This document shows positions 12,780 to 19,737 of a stretch of DNA of 24,000 bases, piece after piece. The stretch is from Rhodococcus sp. NPDC127527. GTDB taxonomy: Bacteria; Actinomycetota; Actinomycetes; Mycobacteriales; Mycobacteriaceae. The translations under genes were made by a program, and so were the position numbers. The notes beneath the pieces were generated by a model that was given only the letters and a program-made list of their open reading frames with translations, was not told the DNA's origin and did not search any database. Position 1 is the stretch's first letter. Each line of letters starts with the position of its first letter. The stretch is from assembly GCF_042672245.1 (NCBI RefSeq), contig NZ_JBHXVP010000003.1, forward strand, positions 58,013 through 82,012. Reading direction: 5' to 3'.

Positions 12780-14234
12780 ATGAGCGACGACCAGCACAAC
12801 CAGGGTCAGGACTCGCCCTGGGCCCCCCAGCCCGCCACCAACCAGCCGCCGCAGACCCCGCAGGCGCAGTCGGACGACCAGACCGCGGTGAACCCGGCGG
12901 CCCACAACCCGGCCGAGCAGTACCCGACCGTGGCGCATCCGACCGCCCAGCACCAGCAGTACCAGCAGCAGGCGTACCAGCAGTCCGGGTACCAGCAGCC
13001 GTCGTACGGCAGCTACCAGCAGCAGGATGCGTACGGCGCGACCGCCCAGTACCCGACCGCGGGTGGCCCCTCCACCGCCGGCATGGCGACACCGATGGCC
13101 GGCGCCCCGGCCGCGGGCAAGCCGAAGTCCGGCCGCACCGCGATCGCGGCGGGCGCCATCGCGCTCGCGCTGGTCAGCGGCGGCATCGGCGGCGCGGTGG
13201 GCGCGTGGTCCGCCAACAACGGGAGCGGTTCGGGCCCGGTGACCAACGCGCTCAACGCCCCGCGGACGAACGCGACCCAGACCGCGAACGCCCCGGCCGG
13301 CTCGGTGCAGTCGGTTGCCCAGAAGGTGCTGCCGAGCGTCGTGCAGATCCAGGTCACCGGCAGCCGCGCCGAGGGTGAGGGGTCCGGCATCGTGCTGTCC
13401 TCCGACGGTCTGATCCTGACCAACAACCACGTCGCAGCGGGCGCCGGACCGGACGGCAAGCTGGCGGTCGCGTTCTCCGACGGCTCCACTGCCACCGCCA
13501 AACTGGTCGGCACCGACCCGACCTCGGACATCGCGGTGATCAAGGTCGACGGCCGCACCGACCTCACCCCCATCGAGCTGGGCACCTCCGCGGATCTGCA
13601 GGTCGGTCAGCCGGTGGTGGCGATCGGGTCGCCGCTCGGCCTCGCCGGCACCGTCACGAGCGGCATCATCTCCTCGCTCAACCGCCCGGTGTCCACCAGC
13701 GGAGAGTCCGGAAACCAGAACACCGTCATCGACGCGATCCAGACGGACGCGGCGATCAACCCCGGCAACTCGGGCGGCGCGCTGGTGAACATGGACGGAA
13801 AGCTGATCGGCATCAACACCGCGATCGCCACCCTCGGCGGGGAGGCCGCCAGCGGACAGCAGGGCGGCTCGATCGGGCTCGGCTTCGCGATCCCCGTCGA
13901 CCAGGCCCGCCGCGTCGCCGACGAGCTGACCAAGACCGGCAAGGCCAGCCAGGCGATCGTCGGAGTGTCGGTGTCCTCGCGGGACACCTCGCACGGCGCG
14001 GGCGTACAGGACGTCACCCAGGGCGGTCCCGCCGACCAGGCGGGCATCCCGAAGGGCGTGGTGATCACCAAGGTCGACGATCGGATCATCGACAGTGGTG
14101 ACGCGCTGATCGCGGCGATCCGCTCGCACGCCCCCGGCGACAAGGTGAAGGTCACCTACACCGATGCCAACGGCGGAAATTCGAAGACTGTCGAGGTCAC
14201 CCTCGCCGCGGCGCCCACCACGGGCGGCCGGTGA
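12780..14234 (+). CDS. pepD: HtrA/DegP-family (S1C) serine protease with C-terminal PDZ domain, PepD-like
   Basis: Catalytic-region motifs GSGIVLSSDGLILTNNHV, TDPTSDIAVIKV and INPGNSGGALVN. PDZ region GVQDVTQGGPADQAGIPKGVVITKVDD. One TM helix (aa 120-143) follows a Q/Y/P-rich cytoplasmic tail. Confidence 0.88.
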   Translation: MSDDQHNQGQDSPWAPQPATNQPPQTPQAQSDDQTAVNPAAHNPAEQYPTVAHPTAQHQQYQQQAYQQSGYQQPSYGSYQQQDAYGATAQYPTAGGPSTAGMATPMAGAPAAGKPKSGRTAIAAGAIALALVSGGIGGAVGAWSANNGSGSGPVTNALNAPRTNATQTANAPAGSVQSVAQKVLPSVVQIQVTGSRAEGEGSGIVLSSDGLILTNNHVAAGAGPDGKLAVAFSDGSTATAKLVGTDPTSDIAVIKVDGRTDLTPIELGTSADLQVGQPVVAIGSPLGLAGTVTSGIISSLNRPVSTSGESGNQNTVIDAIQTDAAINPGNSGGALVNMDGKLIGINTAIATLGGEAASGQQGGSIGLGFAIPVDQARRVADELTKTGKASQAIVGVSVSSRDTSHGAGVQDVTQGGPADQAGIPKGVVITKVDDRIIDSGDALIAAIRSHAPGDKVKVTYTDANGGNSKTVEVTLAAAPTTGGR

Positions 14235-14242
14235 TGATCACT

Positions 14243-14276
14243 CCGAACGGCCGCGCCTCCGGGCGCGGCCGTTCGG
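14243..14276 (+). terminator. Intrinsic terminator after pepD
   Basis: Perfect 15-bp stem CCGAACGGCCGCGCC / GGCGCGGCCGTTCGG with loop TCCG, starting 9 nt after the pepD stop. Confidence 0.7.
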
Positions 14277-14338
14277 CCGTATCCCGTATTTACGGCCAGG
14301 TCGGTGCCACCGGCCGGTCAGCCACTACCGTAGGAGTC

Positions 14339-14836
14339 ATGGACATCGAAACCCCGCTGGCCGGCCGCGCTCTCGTGGTGATCGTCGACGATCGAACCGC
14401 CCACGGCGAGGGGGTGGATTCGATCGGACCCCTGGTCGCCGAGCTGCTCGGGGAGGCAGGTTTCCTCGTCGATGCCACCGTGGCGGTGTCCGCGGACGAA
14501 GTGGAGATTCGCAACGCGCTCAACACCGCGGTGATCGGCGGCGTCGACCTGGTGATCTCCGTCGGTGGCACCGGTGTCTCACCGCGTGACGTCACCCCCG
14601 ACGCGACCGCCGCCGTGCTGGACCGGGAGATCCCGGGTATCAGCGAGGCGCTGCGGTCGTCGGGACTCGCCGCCGGGGCGCTCGACGCCGGCCTCTCGCG
14701 CGGGCTGGTCGGAGTGTCCGGCAGTACCCTGGTGGTGAACCTGGCCTCGTCCCGCGCCGCCGTGCGCGACGGAATGGCCACCTTGACCCCGCTCGCCGGC
14801 CAGGTGATCGGCGAACTCTCCTGGATAGAGGACTAG
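14339..14836 (+). CDS. moaB2: MogA/MoaB-family molybdenum cofactor biosynthesis protein
   Basis: ATG at 14339 with an AGGAG RBS at 14332-14336. ALVVIVDDR...DLVISVGGTGVSPRDVTPDAT...PGISEALR is typical of the MoaB/MogA fold. Its position after pepD matches Rv0984. Confidence 0.85.
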   Translation: MDIETPLAGRALVVIVDDRTAHGEGVDSIGPLVAELLGEAGFLVDATVAVSADEVEIRNALNTAVIGGVDLVISVGGTGVSPRDVTPDATAAVLDREIPGISEALRSSGLAAGALDAGLSRGLVGVSGSTLVVNLASSRAAVRDGMATLTPLAGQVIGELSWIED

Positions 14837-15027
14837 TCATCACCGACCACGCCGAGCAGGCACGCCCCAGCCGGGACCCGATCGATCGGGCCCGGCTGGC
14901 GCGCATTTTCGGTGACGTCCTCCCCGAGACCACGCGCGACGAGCGCGGCGACGGCGACTCGCCTGGATCCTCCGAGTCCGTCGGCGACGAGTGGTTGCGT
15001 CGGCAGGTTCCCCCGCATCACGGCTGA
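14836..15027 (+). CDS. Candidate small protein (about 63 aa) with no canonical start codon: (V)ITDHAEQARPSRDPIDRARLARIFGDVLPETTRDERGDGDSPGSSESVGDEWLRRQVPPHHG
   Basis: Hand translation of frame 1 from the nucleotide overlapping the moaB2 TAG to the TGA at 15025-15027. By my count about 53 of 63 codons end in G or C, which is typical of real genes here. There is no ATG/GTG/TTG in frame between 14590 and 14994. Possible starts are ATC at 14839 or CTG at 14821, after a GAGGA at 14828-14832. Confidence 0.4.
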   Translation, partial: VITDHAEQARPSRDPIDRARLARIFGDVLPETTRDERGDGDSPGSSESVGDEWLRRQVPPHHG

Positions 15028-15314
15028 GCCGACGCGGGTGCGTGCGACACGTCCGTGAACATCTTCCCGACGTTGTCGCCTCCAGCCGTCCCCCGATCGC
15101 GGCTCGTGCCCGTGAATTGTTTCCTTAACACTGTGTGACGACTCACCCCGCACTATCGAAAACTATTCATTGCCAGGGGACTCCGCCCTGGTTAGCCTCC
15201 TCGCGAGTCAGCTCAGGAATGGCCCGACGGGCCGTCGATGGGTAGGTCCGCCCGGTGGAGGCGCGGTTTGTCGATGGCGACTCATCGGTAAAGCGTGCAC
15301 CAACAAGTAGTCAC

Positions 15315-15326
15315 CGTGAATTCACG
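15315..15326. promoter_or_regulatory. Perfect 12-bp palindrome CGTGAATTCACG in the porin A1 leader; candidate operator
   Basis: Read directly. The 9-mer CCGTGAATT also occurs at 15110-15118. It lies 104 nt upstream of the A1 ATG inside a lower-GC 400-bp non-coding region. Confidence 0.3.
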
Positions 15327-15429
15327 CTGCGGTAATCACAGTTGGCAATACTTCGCCGGGTCTTATGGGACCACTCGTCAATCTCGGCGGTCGAGGTTGA
15401 GTAGTAGCAGAACGTGATGAGGGGAACGA

Positions 15430-16101
15430 ATGAGCGAGAACCGCAAGTCCGGCCTGCGCCGTGGCGCCCGAATCGTCGGTGGCGCGGCCGTTGCGGCCGT
15501 TGCCGTCGGCCTGGTGTCCACGGGTGTGGCGGGTGCCGACACGTTCGTGCCGTTGCCGGACGGGTCGAAGACCACGCCGGGTGTGGTCGTCTCGCGTACG
15601 GGTGAGAGTGCGTTGATCTCGCCGTCGTTGGCGGCCAACGGTGCCGGTCGTACGGCGTGGGTGTCGGGCACGGTCACCGCGGACGTGTCGTCGATCGCCA
15701 AGGAGGGCGAGGTGGGTCCGTTCAACGGTGCGAAGAACGATCCGGGTACGAACAACTCGTCCACGCACGGGGTTTCGCGGATCAGCACCGGGTACATCGT
15801 GGGGTGCCAGGTGGACATCACGGGTCTGGGCGGGTCGTTCGGTGGCGGTATCGACCTGAACGGTCCGTCGTTGTCGGCGTCGTTGACGGTGCCGGTGTCG
15901 GCGGGTCAGGTGAAGTTCGTGAACGTGGCGGGCAAGGACATCAAGAAGAACGGCAAGTACTCGGTGCAGTTCCAGGACACCCAGTTGGAGATCCAGAACT
16001 GCGGCGGGTACGCCCAGGCCCGGTCCTACACCGTGGTGGAGATCGTGGGGGACAACTACTCCAAGACCACCCTGTACGGGCAGCCGTTCTCCATCGGCTG
16101 A
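15430..16101 (+). CDS. MspA-family porin, type A, copy 1 (223 aa)
   Basis: Signal peptide ending VAGA followed by DTFVPLPDG. Landmarks alignable to M. smegmatis MspA: WVSG (cf. WFHSGRAK), GYIVGCQ (cf. GYQIG), and C-terminal TLYGQPFSIG (cf. TTYGEPWNMN). GAGGGG RBS 5 nt upstream. Confidence 0.85.
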   Translation: MSENRKSGLRRGARIVGGAAVAAVAVGLVSTGVAGADTFVPLPDGSKTTPGVVVSRTGESALISPSLAANGAGRTAWVSGTVTADVSSIAKEGEVGPFNGAKNDPGTNNSSTHGVSRISTGYIVGCQVDITGLGGSFGGGIDLNGPSLSASLTVPVSAGQVKFVNVAGKDIKKNGKYSVQFQDTQLEIQNCGGYAQARSYTVVEIVGDNYSKTTLYGQPFSIG

Positions 16102-16153
16102 TCGCGGCTTCGCCGCCTGATATTCCGAAATCTGAACCCTCGAAAGGGAATTG

Positions 16154-16831
16154 ATGAACGCCAGCAAGACCGGCCTGCGTCGCGGGCTGCAGATCGCTTC
16201 CGTCGGTGCGGCCGCTGCCGTGGCCGTCGGCCTGTTCTCCGTCGGTGCCGCGAACGCGGACACGTTCGTGCCGTTGCCGGACGGCAGCATCTCCGAGACC
16301 CTGGTCGACGGGACGATCGTGAAGATCACCCGCACCGGCGAGTCGGCGAACGTGTCGCCGTCGTTGGGTGCGACGCCGTTGCACCGCAACGTGTGGGTGT
16401 CGGGTTCGGCGAAGGTCGAACTGATCGGCCCGAACGCCGACGGTGGCAAGATCGAGCCCGGCTACGTGGTGGGGTGCCAGCTGACCCTCGGTGGCAAGTC
16501 CGGTGCCGACTCGGGCATCGGGTCGAACTACGCGGGCGACAAGACCACCCAGTCGGCGAAGGGGTCGGGCACCGTCTCGATCGGACCGGGCCAGGCCGTG
16601 AACCACCGGCTGCTCGACCTGGAGAAGGCCGACGACTACGGTTCCGAGTCGCACTCGGGCGCCAACAGTTTCAAGGGCAAGGGCGGCAGCGTCACGTGGG
16701 CCGACGAGACCATTGCCGTCAACGGGTGCGCCGGCTACGCCCAGGCCCGCAACTACGTCAAGGTCACCGCGAACACCAAGAACGTCAACAGCACCATCAC
16801 CCTGTGGGGTCAGCCGTTCAGCATCGGCTGA
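16154..16831 (+). CDS. MspA-family porin, type B, copy 1 (225 aa)
   Basis: ATG at 16154 (RBS GAAAGGGA). Signal peptide ending ANA followed by DTFVPLPDG; HRNVWVSGSAK, GYVVGCQL, SIGPGQ (cf. MspA GNGPGIQ), GCAGYAQAR, TLWGQPFSIG. Starts 52 nt after the A1 stop. Confidence 0.85.
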   Translation: MNASKTGLRRGLQIASVGAAAAVAVGLFSVGAANADTFVPLPDGSISETLVDGTIVKITRTGESANVSPSLGATPLHRNVWVSGSAKVELIGPNADGGKIEPGYVVGCQLTLGGKSGADSGIGSNYAGDKTTQSAKGSGTVSIGPGQAVNHRLLDLEKADDYGSESHSGANSFKGKGGSVTWADETIAVNGCAGYAQARNYVKVTANTKNVNSTITLWGQPFSIG

Positions 16832-16911
16832 CCCATCGGTGACCTGAATCACTTACGGACGGAACGGGTTACGCTCACATGTGAGACCGATCACGATTCG
16901 ACCCCTCTTGC

Positions 16912-16954
16912 GAAGCCGGGGACCACGCGGAGAAACCCGCGGGTTCCCGGCTTC
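16912..16954 (+). terminator. Intrinsic terminator after porin pair 1
   Basis: 18-bp stem (one G-U pair, one bulged A) with a 6-nt loop: GAAGCCGGGGACCaCGCGG-agaaac-CCGCGGGTTCCCGGCTTC, followed by GTGGTGTTTCG. Confidence 0.7.
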
Positions 16955-17104
16955 GTGGTGTTTCGCCCCGTTCCCGCACAGTTAACGATGCGTAAAAGTG
17001 AGGTTCGCACCCTTTCGGACGTCCGTCCAAGGTTCTAGCTTTGCGGGGCAACCAAGCTCAGCCCCCGACCGCCGGGGCTGGGCCGACACCTGTGAGGGGT
17101 ACGA

Positions 17105-17776
17105 ATGAGTGAGATCAGGAAGTCCGGCCTGCGCCGCAGCACCCGAATCGGTGGTGTCGGCGCCGTTGCCGCCGTCGCGATCGCGCTGACGTCCACCGGC
17201 GCCGCGAGCGCCGACACCTTCGTCCCACTGCCCGACGGGCAGAAGGCGGGTCCGGGCGCGGTGGTGACGCGGACCGGCGAAAGTGCGTTGATCTCGCCGT
17301 CGTTGGCGGCCAACGGCGCGGGTCGCACGGCGTGGGTGTCGGGCACCGTCAGCGCGGACGTCACGGGTGTCGCCGAGGAAGGCGAGGTCGGTCCGTGGAA
17401 CGGTGCGACCAACGATCCGGGTACGAACAACTCGTCCACGCACGGGGTTTCGCGAATCAGCACGGGCTACATCGTCGGGTGTCAGGTCGACATCACCGGA
17501 CTGGGCGGTTCGCTCGGTGGCGGAATGGACCTGTCGGGTCCGTCGCTGTCGGCATCGATGACGGTGCCGGTCTCGGCCGGTCAGGTGAAGTTCGTGAACG
17601 TGGCGGGCAAGGACGTCAAGCGCAACGGCAAGTACTCGGTGCAGTACCAGGACACCCAGCTCGAGATCCAGAACTGCGGCGGCTACGCCCAGGCCCGGTC
17701 GTACACGGTGGTCGAGATCGTGGGCAACGACTACTCGAAGACCACCTTGTACGGGCAGCCGTTCAGCATCGGCTGA
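17105..17776 (+). CDS. MspA-family porin, type A, copy 2 (223 aa)
   Basis: Colinear with A1. Same signal-peptide architecture (ASA then DTFVPLPDG) and the same Cys positions (126 and 191). Confidence 0.85.
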   Translation: MSEIRKSGLRRSTRIGGVGAVAAVAIALTSTGAASADTFVPLPDGQKAGPGAVVTRTGESALISPSLAANGAGRTAWVSGTVSADVTGVAEEGEVGPWNGATNDPGTNNSSTHGVSRISTGYIVGCQVDITGLGGSLGGGMDLSGPSLSASMTVPVSAGQVKFVNVAGKDVKRNGKYSVQYQDTQLEIQNCGGYAQARSYTVVEIVGNDYSKTTLYGQPFSIG

Positions 17777-17852
17777 TCGGGTTCGGCTCGTCCAAGTCCT
17801 CGTTCACTTCCGTCTCGACTGATGTGAGACGGATTCCCCCAGAGGGGTTTTC

Positions 17853-18530
17853 ATGCGTACTTCCAACAAGAGCCTGCGTCGCGGGCTGCAGATCGCTTCC
17901 GTCGGTGCGGCCGCTGCCGTGGCCGTCGGCCTGTTCTCCGTCGGTGCCGCGAACGCGGACACCTTCGTACCGCTGCCCGACGGGTCGATCTCCAAGACCC
18001 TGGTCGACGGCACCGTGGTGACGGTGACCCGCACCGGTGAGTCGGCGACGGTGTCGCCGTCGATGGGGGCGACGCCATTGCATCGCAACGTGTGGGTGTC
18101 GGGATCGGCGAAGGTCGAGATCTCCGGACCGAACGCCGACGGCGGCAAGATCGAACCCGGCTACATCGTGGCCTGCCAGCTGACCCTCGGTGGAGAGGCG
18201 GGTACCGAGTCCGGGACGGGTGCGGGCTGGGACGGTACGCCGGGCGAGCCGTCCGCCGGGGGTACCGGCAACGTGTCGATCGGTCCCGGTCAGGCGCAGG
18301 CGTTTTCGGTGCTCGATCTCGAGGCGCCGGACGACTTCGGCGGGGAGTCGCACTCGGGTGAGAACTCGTTCACCGGCAACTCGGGTTCGGTGACGTGGGC
18401 GGACTCGACGATGGGTATCGACGGTTGTGCCGGGTACGCGCAGGCGCGGTCCTTCGTGAGGGTGAAGGTCAACACGGAGAACGTGTCGAGCACGGTCACC
18501 CTGTGGGGCCAGCCCTTCAGTATCGGCTAG
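17853..18530 (+). CDS. MspA-family porin, type B, copy 2 (225 aa), strongly acidic variant
   Basis: Colinear with B1 and identical to it over signal-peptide residues 8-35. AGAGGGG RBS. Starts 76 nt after the A2 stop. Confidence 0.85.
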   Translation: MRTSNKSLRRGLQIASVGAAAAVAVGLFSVGAANADTFVPLPDGSISKTLVDGTVVTVTRTGESATVSPSMGATPLHRNVWVSGSAKVEISGPNADGGKIEPGYIVACQLTLGGEAGTESGTGAGWDGTPGEPSAGGTGNVSIGPGQAQAFSVLDLEAPDDFGGESHSGENSFTGNSGSVTWADSTMGIDGCAGYAQARSFVRVKVNTENVSSTVTLWGQPFSIG

Positions 18531-18546
18531 GAATGCTCGAAACAGG

Positions 18547-18578
18547 CTGGGCCCGTACCGTTCTCGGTACGGGCCCAG
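18547..18578. terminator. Bidirectional terminator between porin B2 and the convergent mscL
   Basis: Perfect 14-bp stem CTGGGCCCGTACCG / CGGTACGGGCCCAG with loop TTCT. Confidence 0.7.
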
Positions 18579-18596
18579 GCCGGGTTCGAGGTGGGG

Positions 18597-18986
18597 CTAC
18601 TGCCTGCGGAGCGCCGGGCTCTCGGCCAGCAGGTCGCGAATCTCGCCGAGCAGCTCGTTGTCGGTGGCCGTCTCGACGACGGGCTTGCCGAACCGCTGCT
18701 TGGCGTGGTTGTACGGCATGATGAGCACGAAGTAGACGACCGCCGCGATGATCACGAAGTTGATTGCTGCGGTGAGAACCGCGCCGATGTTCACGAATGT
18801 CGCCGGATTGTCGGTGATCTGGAAGCCGAAGCCCATCTCGGCGCTGCCGATGGAGGCGATGAGCGGATTGACGATGTTGTTGGTGAAGGCGGTGACGATG
18901 GCGGTGAAGGCCGCGCCGATCACGACCGCTACCGCGAGGTCGAGCACGTCGCCCTTCATCAGGAAGTCCTTGAAACCCTTGAGCAT
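18597..18986 (-). CDS. mscL: Large-conductance mechanosensitive channel
   Basis: MLKGFKDFLMKGDVLDLAVAVVIGAAFTAIVTAFTNNIVNPLIA is the canonical MscL N-terminus. True ATG at 18984-18986; the longer ORF-track start is unlikely. Confidence 0.93.
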   Translation of the reverse strand: MLKGFKDFLMKGDVLDLAVAVVIGAAFTAIVTAFTNNIVNPLIASIGSAEMGFGFQITDNPATFVNIGAVLTAAINFVIIAAVVYFVLIMPYNHAKQRFGKPVVETATDNELLGEIRDLLAESPALRRQ

Positions 18987-19077
18987 GGTGTGGTCTCCAT
19001 TCCGTCGGCCGGTTGGTGAGCGTGGACAACGATGCCAGGAACCCTGATGGCTGTCGAGCGAGCTCACATCCGGTCGA

Positions 19078-19737
19078 TCAGTGGAAGGTGACGGCCAGCG
19101 CGCCGGTGAGTGAGGCCGCGGCCACCGTGGTGGCGGCCTCGACGGGAAGCGCCAGCATGACCACCCGATCACGGGTGTTGCGGCCGGATTCCTTCTCCGA
19201 CACCAGGACTACGGTGGCGCTCGACGCCAGGACCCGCGGATCGGTGGAACGATCGCCGCCGACCGTCAGCACGTCCACTCGGTCGCCGACCCGAAGCACG
19301 TCGGTGACCTCGGGATCTGCCAGCCGGATCGGGACCACTCGGGCCTCCGGGCCGCCGACGGCCGCCTCCGCGAGGCGGGGGCCGAGCAGGCGCACGTCGG
19401 TCATCGCTTCGCCGCTGCGGGCCGGGCCGGCTACGGTGTGCCCGATCGCGTCGCCGGGCGCACGGAGGGCGCCCGCCGGAACGAGGTCGGCATCCATCGG
19501 TGTCACCCGAAGGTCGGAGAAGACGAGGACCTGGCCCGGGGCCAGGTCGCGCGCGGCGGTGACCACGGGGACCTCGTCGGTCTCCCGGTCGCCGCGGATC
19601 AGCAGGAACAGTGCCATCAGCACCAGGACACCCGCCGCGATCCGGCGGGCGAGGGTCGTACGGGCCCAACCAGGTCTGGTCAGTCGCGCGAGGCGGTCGC
19701 CGTAGGTGCGGGACAGGGTGTCGCGTCGGCGTGGCAT
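19078..19737 (-). CDS. SAF-domain membrane-anchored protein (CpaB/RcpC-like N-terminal architecture; Rv0990c position)
   Basis: N-terminal TM helix IAAGVLVLMALFLLI followed by a SAF-like region VPVVTAARDLAPGQVLVFSDLRV. The 219-aa size and the position between ruc and mscL fit the Rv0990c locus. Confidence 0.7.
   Translation of the reverse strand: MPRRRDTLSRTYGDRLARLTRPGWARTTLARRIAAGVLVLMALFLLIRGDRETDEVPVVTAARDLAPGQVLVFSDLRVTPMDADLVPAGALRAPGDAIGHTVAGPARSGEAMTDVRLLGPRLAEAAVGGPEARVVPIRLADPEVTDVLRVGDRVDVLTVGGDRSTDPRVLASSATVVLVSEKESGRNTRDRVVMLALPVEAATTVAAASLTGALAVTFH

Follow-up and report, generated by a model that had tools for sequence, protein, structure and literature searches.

Four MspA-family porin genes in Rhodococcus sp. 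NPDC127527 probably encode two channels whose pores differ in charge. The genes, all in the same direction, sit between a moaB-like gene and mscL in a 24,000-nucleotide stretch of contig NZ_JBHXVP010000003.1 (forward strand, positions 58,013 to 82,012; hereafter the window, whose own numbering we use). They are A1, B1, A2 and B2, and we consider it likely that they make up two separately transcribed A-B pairs, of which pair 2 would be strongly cation-selective and pair 1 weakly selective. Each cell would then probably hold one strongly cation-selective pore and one nearly neutral pore.

15430..16101, plus strand: A1, A-type MspA-family porin subunit of 223 amino acids, partner of B1 (PF09203, 88.1 bits).
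16154..16831, plus strand: B1, B-type MspA-family subunit of the near-neutral class, 225 amino acids from the ATG (PF09203, 139.9 bits).
17105..17776, plus strand: A2, A-type subunit of 223 amino acids, partner of B2 (PF09203, 86.4 bits).
17853..18530, plus strand: B2, B-type subunit of the acidic (ancestral) class, 225 amino acids (PF09203, 155.8 bits).

One segment carries the charge difference between the two B subunits. B1 and B2 align over 225 residues without a gap at 74% identity, but identity is 53% within residues 115–178 (16496-16687 in B1, 18195-18386 in B2, both in frame) and 82–83% outside them. In B1 this segment has six lysines and one arginine, for a net charge of 0; in B2 it has no lysine or arginine and a net charge of -10. 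Of its 11 charge-changing substitutions, ten shift B2 toward negative charge (sum -10; binomial p = 0.012). Outside it, three charge changes in the mature protein go up and three go down (sum 0), so the entire B1/B2 difference lies in the segment. Counted from DTFVPLPDG, the mature proteins have net charges of -1 (A1), -2 (B1), -4 (A2) and -12 (B2). A preliminary description of this DNA had reported the gapless alignment with its diverged segment, the basic-residue counts and, by hand count, these mature charges; the first was borne out, the counts were reproduced, and the charges agreed exactly.

The acidic and near-neutral B proteins belong to a conserved split rather than to drift. We searched 14 other genomes of the same GTDB genus for B-type genes (E <= 1e-20) and found them in seven, with no match in the other seven; the A/B pair system is restricted to part of the genus. 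Together with the Rhodococcus genome itself, these seven relatives gave 35 complete B genes in eight genomes, which are close kin, so that the class counts below are not independent. Net charge is bimodal: 21 proteins fall at -1 to -4, 14 at -11 to -20, and none between. All eight genomes with A/B pairs hold both classes, with 3–9 B-type matches per genome. Individual positions (precursor numbering) follow the split. All 21 neutral proteins have K at residues 115 and 174, where 13/14 and 10/14 acidic ones, respectively, have E; at residue 152 all 21 neutral proteins have K or R, and the acidic class is uncharged (S, P or A in 13/14). Residue 170 is A in 20/21 neutral and E in 13/14 acidic proteins; residue 136 is K in 19/21 neutral proteins and mostly G in acidic ones. 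An A gene lies directly upstream of 33 of the 35 B genes, and the remaining two B genes are near contig starts. Four relatives repeat the quartet seen here, in which a neutral pair and then an acidic pair lie between moaB and mscL. We speak of a class split because charge is bimodal, both classes occur in each genome, and purifying selection acts within each class, as described below.

All four proteins have the family and fold of MspA. Each matches PF09203 (86–156 bits; cut-off 22.9). A Foldseek comparison of the B2 AlphaFold model retrieved MspA (1uun_A, E = 1e-7), and the rim domain matched 2v9u_A with a template modelling score of 0.82 and a root-mean-square deviation of 2.9. The rim has predicted local distance difference test (pLDDT) values of 80–95 in the models of both B1 and B2. 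A basic-hydrophobic N-terminal stretch is followed by AxA and then DTFVPLPDG, leaving mature lengths of 187 (A) and 190 (B) residues; the signal-peptide cleavage site was read from the sequence, not from a dedicated predictor. MspA was not reached by sequence: PDB searches with B1, A1 and a profile of 30 B sequences gave only chance matches to ankyrin repeats (DARPins). The link came instead from Pfam, from Foldseek and from a MAFFT alignment to which the genome's own, more MspA-like paralogues had been added. The MspA sequence in that alignment was checked against 1UUN and is identical except at position 96 (R in the crystallised protein).

The first half of the diverged segment corresponds to the MspA stem. 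B residues 110–143, between GY.V.CQ and SIGPGQ, align in MAFFT with MspA W72 to about G112, the stretch that holds D90/D91 at its hairpin tip. In both AlphaFold models these residues form a low-confidence gap (pLDDT <50) between confident rim strands, and in the B1 model (120 sequences) a small low-confidence hairpin has its tip between AG and DK. Near the predicted tip, whose exact residues are uncertain, B2 would place D127 and E132, each A subunit one Asp, and B1 the pair D129-K130 together with K136. The alignment and the low-pLDDT gap agree with the original assignment of the first part of the segment to the stem and D90/D91 region of MspA. The second half lies outside the stem. Residues 153–178 include an insertion of about 15 residues (LDLE.ADD.G.ESH) that is in neither MspA nor the A subunits, and their last residues (SF.G..G) align with MspA loop 136–141, which includes the mouth residue E139.

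The two subunit types share a further regularity. Every A and B subunit contains exactly two cysteines, one in G-C-Q after GY.V and one in G-C-A/G-G-Y-A-Q-A-R. In alignments of 30 and of 120 B proteins, C108 and C192 never vary, and the A1 pair is encoded within 15805-16002. MspA has no cysteine. A disulfide between the two in the rim domain is plausible.

16481..16582, plus strand: B1 stem hairpin, residues 110–143 (MspA alignment, two-residue periodicity, low-confidence model hairpin).
18180..18281, plus strand: B2 stem hairpin, residues 110–143 (alignment with the MspA stem, periodicity).
16610..16687, plus strand: B1 post-stem loop region, residues 153–178, LLDLEKADDYGSESHSGANSFKGKGG, net charge -2 (MAFFT alignment with MspA).
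18309..18386, plus strand: B2 post-stem loop region, residues 153–178, VLDLEAPDDFGGESHSGENSFTGNSG, net charge -6 (alignment with MspA).

Stem periodicity supports an orientation of the B charges toward the lumen. Across the 35 B proteins, the two stem strands alternate strictly with a period of two residues. The apolar face has 321 apolar and 5 charged residues; it carries L, L, G, A, A, S, M/I, S, W along the descending strand and V, Q, A, G, G, V, I along the ascending one. The other face has 174 charged and 54 apolar residues, and invariant glycines alternate with its charged positions. All stem charges of B1 (K115, D119, D129, K130 and K136, net +1) lie on this polar face, as do those of B2 (E115, E119, D127 and E132, net -4), whose stem has no basic residue. 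A gapless count from the conserved GY anchor matches B residues 115 and 119 with MspA G77 and S81, which by sequence pattern belong to the polar face S73-G75-G77-N79-S81-T83, opposite L74, V76, I78, F80 and Y82. A segment on the outside of the barrel had been named beforehand as one outcome that would speak against two pores of different selectivity. Because 174 charges sit on one strand face and only 5 on the apolar one, the stem charges appear instead to point to the lumen and not to lipid.

Selection maintains the segment within each class. The dN/dS ratio (nonsynonymous to synonymous divergence, pairwise Nei-Gojobori) of the segment is 0.08–0.10 between B2 and its orthologues in two relatives, G010 and G013, and 0.22–0.31 between B1 and its own orthologues. 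The loop region of B2 gives 0.00–0.01 against G010 and G013. Between classes, dN/dS reaches 0.70 in the stem and stays at 0.15–0.23 in the rim. Against orthologues in two other relatives, G004 and G006, the stem gives 0.36–0.64 and is the fastest-evolving part of the protein; its sequence drifts between distant orthologues while the charge class stays. The preliminary description had called for dN/dS across orthologous B genes, and its outcome, 0.08–0.31 within class against a between-class maximum in the stem, is purifying selection on the segment in both classes.

Gene conversion overwrote the 5' half of B1/B2 and ended just before the stem. Codons 11–40 of the two genes are identical in DNA, and the proportion of synonymous differences (pS) is 0.25–0.38 up to about codon 110 and 0.46–0.73 beyond. 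In the N-terminal rim, pS between B1 and B2 (0.34) is lower than between either and the G006 orthologues (0.40–0.46); in the C-terminal rim the order is reversed. On its left, the segment starts where the conversion tract ends, which partly explains why the segment stands out. Conversion is also part of the reason that B2 (-12) is less acidic than unconverted acidic paralogues (-16 to -20). In the neutral B1 orthologue of R. spelaei (L019:4727-5296), the loop reads LDLEAPDAFG, like B2 (EAPDD) and unlike B1 here (EKADD), which suggests that short patches were converted from B2 into B1 as well.

This history invites a simpler account, in which the segment is a by-product of mosaic conversion and loose constraint and its charge has no effect on selectivity. 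The identical codons, the step in pS after about codon 110, an N-terminal rim that is closer between paralogues than to G006 orthologues, and a stem that evolves fastest even between orthologues all count in its favour. We nevertheless regard that account as unlikely. Charge is kept as sequence drifts, with K115 and E115 nearly fixed in their classes, and the interval between -5 and -10 is empty in a bimodal distribution. Loose constraint also sits poorly with the low within-class dN/dS of the segment and with ten of 11 charge changes in the same direction. The 3' rim has a pS as high as that of the segment and a low proportion of nonsynonymous differences (pN), so age alone is insufficient to explain the segment. 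Two pores of differing charge remain the better reading.

The acidic B form is the older one. We built a tree of 123 B-type proteins with stem and loop columns excluded. Neutral proteins of the clade studied here, B1 among them, nest within an acidic grade to which Nocardia and the R. jostii group, both mostly acidic, also belong. Because of this nesting, acidic B2 is the ancestral, MspA-like form and lysine-lined B1 a derived, neutralised one. The charge contrast first described as a swap stands, but its implied polarity does not: on the tree, B2 is in the ordinary ancestral state and B1 is the altered protein. The tree needs six class changes, of which well-supported branches force at least four, and near-neutral forms also occur in the R. 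koreensis group and in Nocardia (P0041, P0052, P0060 and P0100). Neutralisation of the B1 type was probably recurrent.

B appears to be the variable, charge-setting subunit and A its near-constant partner. A1 and A2 are 86% identical and three charges apart; recomputed, their charges shift in the same direction as those of the B subunits, as had been claimed. Of the motif shifts first cited for this, AKEGE/AEEGE is class-specific among the relatives, GAKND/GATND is not, and KDIKK/KDVKR leaves the charge unchanged. The A1 stem (VDITGLGGSFGGGIDLNGPSLSASLTVPV) has two acidic residues, as do all 32 A stems recovered, and A stem charge is identical in both classes. Only one A position tracks the class of its B partner: mature residue 55, which is K in A1 and in 20 of the 21 A subunits paired with a neutral B, and E in A2. 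Mean net charge of the A partner is -3.5 with acidic B and -0.9 with neutral B. From the constant A stems and the single class-tracking position we infer that B sets the charge.

The same figures could indicate that the charges serve recognition between partners (A1 with B1, A2 with B2), or salt bridges with the acids of the A hairpin, rather than tuning for solutes. A charge does follow B class, and a 16-stranded barrel would put B hairpins beside A hairpins that each carry two acidic residues. We rate this slightly below the conversion account. An A stem charge that is the same in both classes provides no class-specific complementary stem surface, and lysines paired with A aspartates would still neutralise the lumen, with the same functional outcome. 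Surface variation imposed by phages, predators or cationic antimicrobials, for evasion rather than transport, is quite improbable: the B-specific insertion adjoins the loop aligned with MspA E139, which is surface-accessible if exposed as in MspA, and each genome has several B-type matches, but the largest and most diagnostic differences lie in the membrane stem and not in exposed loops, and between B2 and its orthologues in G010 and G013 the loop is nearly invariant, contrary to what diversifying selection would produce.

The two pairs of differing pore charge are most likely separate transcription units.

16910..16956, plus strand: terminator-like hairpin 3' of B1 that separates the pairs (-44.3 kcal/mol, z = -4.9).
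16976..17006, plus strand: block 5' of A2, CGCACAGTTAACGATGCGTAAAAGTGAGGTT, conserved in all five orthologous loci; possible promoter or operator of pair 2.
18536..18590, no strand assigned: strong hairpin between the convergent genes B2 and mscL (-45 kcal/mol, z = -5.8).

Separation is suggested because a hairpin follows B1, a distinct block precedes A2, and the regions upstream of A1 and A2 share little besides a Shine-Dalgarno stretch. The post-B1 hairpin is found in all four orthologous loci, near-identical in G010 and G013 and different in sequence, with T-rich tails, in G004 and G006. Within the pairs, the A-B intergenic gaps are about 50 nucleotides (pair 1) and 76 nucleotides (pair 2). 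With both classes present in every genome that has the pairs, these units agree with the early proposal that one locus supplies two channels of differing charge. The intergenic hairpins were found by direct folding; a scan for consensus promoters and terminators detected neither a sigma-70-like promoter nor the hairpins that follow B1 and B2. The hairpin between B2 and mscL is probably a bidirectional terminator. Rfam returned no RNA family across 14700-18700, hence no riboswitch that would hint at a substrate. An untranslated stretch of about 400 nucleotides precedes A1 (15028-15429), and G+C content is 0.64 over 15001-16000 and about 0.70 elsewhere in the window.

We propose that the B hairpin determines what each pore admits. 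After export through its Sec signal peptide, each subunit would add one beta-hairpin to the stem that spans the membrane, and the goblet-shaped oligomer would probably be an A4B4 hetero-octamer, by analogy with NfpA/NfpB of Nocardia farcinica. The A hairpin, with its two acidic residues, would be constant, and the lumen-side charges of the B hairpin would set the charge of the pore: acidic in B2 (-4 per subunit), mostly lysine in B1 (+1 per subunit). An assumed A4B4 stem would carry 4×(-2) + 4×(-4) = about -24 in pair 2 and 4×(-2) + 4×(+1) = about -4 in pair 1, to which the post-stem loops would add -24 and -8, respectively. Pair 2 should behave as an MspA- or NfpA/NfpB-like, strongly cation-selective channel, since published work on MspA-like pores traces their cation selectivity to the acidic residues at the periplasmic opening (PMC9233653). 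Pair 1 would be weakly selective and much more permissive for anions such as phosphate and organic acids; it need not be anion-selective. Conversion has evened out the 5' halves of the B genes; the stem and loop region stayed class-specific.

Several points weigh against this proposal. The lumenal orientation rests on periodicity and homology, the AlphaFold models being monomeric with stem pLDDT <50, and monomer models do not show how the B-specific insertion lies with respect to the lumen. The eight genomes are closely related, so their class counts are not independent. We looked for positive selection in between-class dN/dS, and its peak of 0.70, in the stem, is below 1. The proposal assumes a hetero-octamer; in R. 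ruber, adjacent subunits each formed pores alone, and both were equally cation-selective (PMC9233653). The inventory may be incomplete as well. The genome has a third pair, A3-B3, of the neutral class (C3:30579-31848), and two more A-type genes are cut by contig ends (C18 start, 3-422; C21 start, 3-188), their B partners not being in the assembly. Because repeated porin cassettes evidently break the assembly, three complete A/B pairs may be a lower bound for this genome.

The surroundings of the porin genes are conserved among close relatives.

14231-14836: moaB-like gene.
18597-19172, minus strand: mscL, convergent with B2.

Gene order here (HtrA-like protease, MoaB, A, B, A, B, MscL, SAF-domain protein) is shared with R. 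spelaei, the closest named relative, whose B2 orthologue has 92% identity, and with three further relatives. We number B1 from the ATG at 16154; the list of open reading frames (ORFs) starts it at the adjacent TTG, 16151. The ATG lies a few bases 3' of a GGGAA Shine-Dalgarno-like motif and gives 225 amino acids, the length of B2; because of this length and the placement of the motif, it is the more likely start. We considered B1 as a decaying copy and rejected the idea, since its class is kept in eight genomes with low dN/dS and B3 is a closely similar second copy.

Relatives place acidic pairs in another setting too. In three related genomes an acidic pair lies directly downstream of a P-type cation ATPase, a context that fits a cation-uptake role for the acidic class. 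These are Rhodococcus sp. MTM3W5.2 (L014:2577-7516), G007 and G005 (L025, L032), where the ATPase with a small ORF on one side and an AIM24-family gene on the other flank a strongly acidic A-B pair (B charges of -18 to -20). The genome studied here has the ATPase and small ORF (C9:139887-142493); the porin pair and the AIM24 gene were not found there. It also has three further MspA-family genes from other subfamilies. Two form a tandem pair on the minus strand (C11:10492-12100) that is much more MspA-like, with mature net charges of -7 and -10; the third is a singleton at C9:99644-100351 with a charge of -4. With these extra subfamilies on C11 and C9, the cell appears to encode at least three kinds of MspA-type channel.

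How hydrophilic solutes, and anions especially, pass the mycolic-acid outer membrane of Nocardiaceae is poorly understood, and the MspA-family channels measured to date are cation-selective. The locus points to B as a selectivity module, which would be a testable route to differing selectivities, and it marks out about ten diagnostic residues. More tentatively, and with rather less than even confidence, we suggest that the B1 class is a naturally neutralised, lysine-lined anion route of Nocardiaceae that evolved several times, a natural counterpart of engineered MspA. If so, it would take phosphate, sulfate, and organic and aromatic acids across the mycomembrane, and it would have arisen independently in this Rhodococcus clade, the R. 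koreensis group and Nocardia. Such a pore could also be the molecule behind those cell-wall channels of these bacteria that are less cation-selective or let anions through.

MspA of Mycolicibacterium smegmatis (1UUN, 2V9U) shares with these proteins the PF09203 family, the rim fold and a single stem hairpin in each subunit, bounded by the GY... and GPG landmarks. B2 resembles it further in a mature net charge of -12 and probably in acidic residues near the hairpin tip, and the stem charge assumed for pair 2 (about -24) matches the 24 aspartates that D90, D91 and D93 contribute in the MspA octamer. MspA is a homo-octamer; here the genes occur as A+B pairs. With 34 residues against about 41, the B stem is some 7 residues shorter, and it is rich in Gly, Ser and Thr. 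B has its 15-residue insertion ahead of the MspA 136–141 loop, and A has one of 20 residues after MspA E59. Both carry the conserved Cys pair that MspA lacks, and B1 has lysines where the MspA lumen is acidic. Changing charges at MspA D90/D91/D93 and D118/D134/E139 alters what the pore passes (PMC9038099, PMC7824896); D134 and E139 lie at the pore mouth, where charge reversal raised DNA capture about 20-fold (PMC9038099).

Paired subunits have a precedent in Nocardia. NfpA and NfpB, as summarised in PMC9233653 and PMC4239869, are encoded by adjacent MspA-family genes and reportedly form a channel only when both subunits are present (Klackta et al. 2011); the channel is cation-selective, with a strongly negative lumen in a published A4B4 homology model. 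The N. farcinica pair that we fetched has the same A-type and B-type make-up, its identity with NfpA/NfpB being unconfirmed. No near-neutral counterpart channel has been described in Nocardia, though near-neutral B paralogues exist there. In Rhodococcus, one paper (PMC9233653) explains the cation selectivity of R. ruber PorA/PorB and R. corynebacteroides PorA by acidic residues near the periplasmic opening. These too are MspA-family cell-wall channels from adjacent genes. At 30–41% identity to MspA, they appear to be a more MspA-like subfamily, set apart by the reported identities, and their counterparts here would be the C11 tandem genes.

Channels of opposite or otherwise differing selectivity in one mycolate cell wall are known from R. 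equi (PorA/PorB) and Corynebacterium glutamicum (PorA/PorH vs PorB/PorC), as summarised in PMC9233653. Here, by comparison, both charge classes would arise within one family by swaps of lumen residues. The anion-selective channels of those other mycolata are small polypeptides and are not known to be MspA-like. In the papers open to our search we found no description of a conserved acidic/near-neutral B dichotomy co-resident in each genome with stem charges on the lumen face.

A functional parallel comes from Escherichia coli, where the paralogous porins OmpF/OmpC and PhoE are made in one cell, are transcribed separately and differ in lumen charge, which gives cation or anion preference. The analogy is one of function only, since those porins have an unrelated fold (16-stranded monomeric barrels in trimers), lie in another kind of membrane and have no subunit pairing. 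For the chemistry of the pore itself, the parallel is engineered MspA, in which D90/D91/D93 were neutralised and basic residues added before the channel would pass DNA in nanopore sequencing. Natural lysine-lined relatives of MspA such as the B1 class could be useful starting scaffolds for nanopores.

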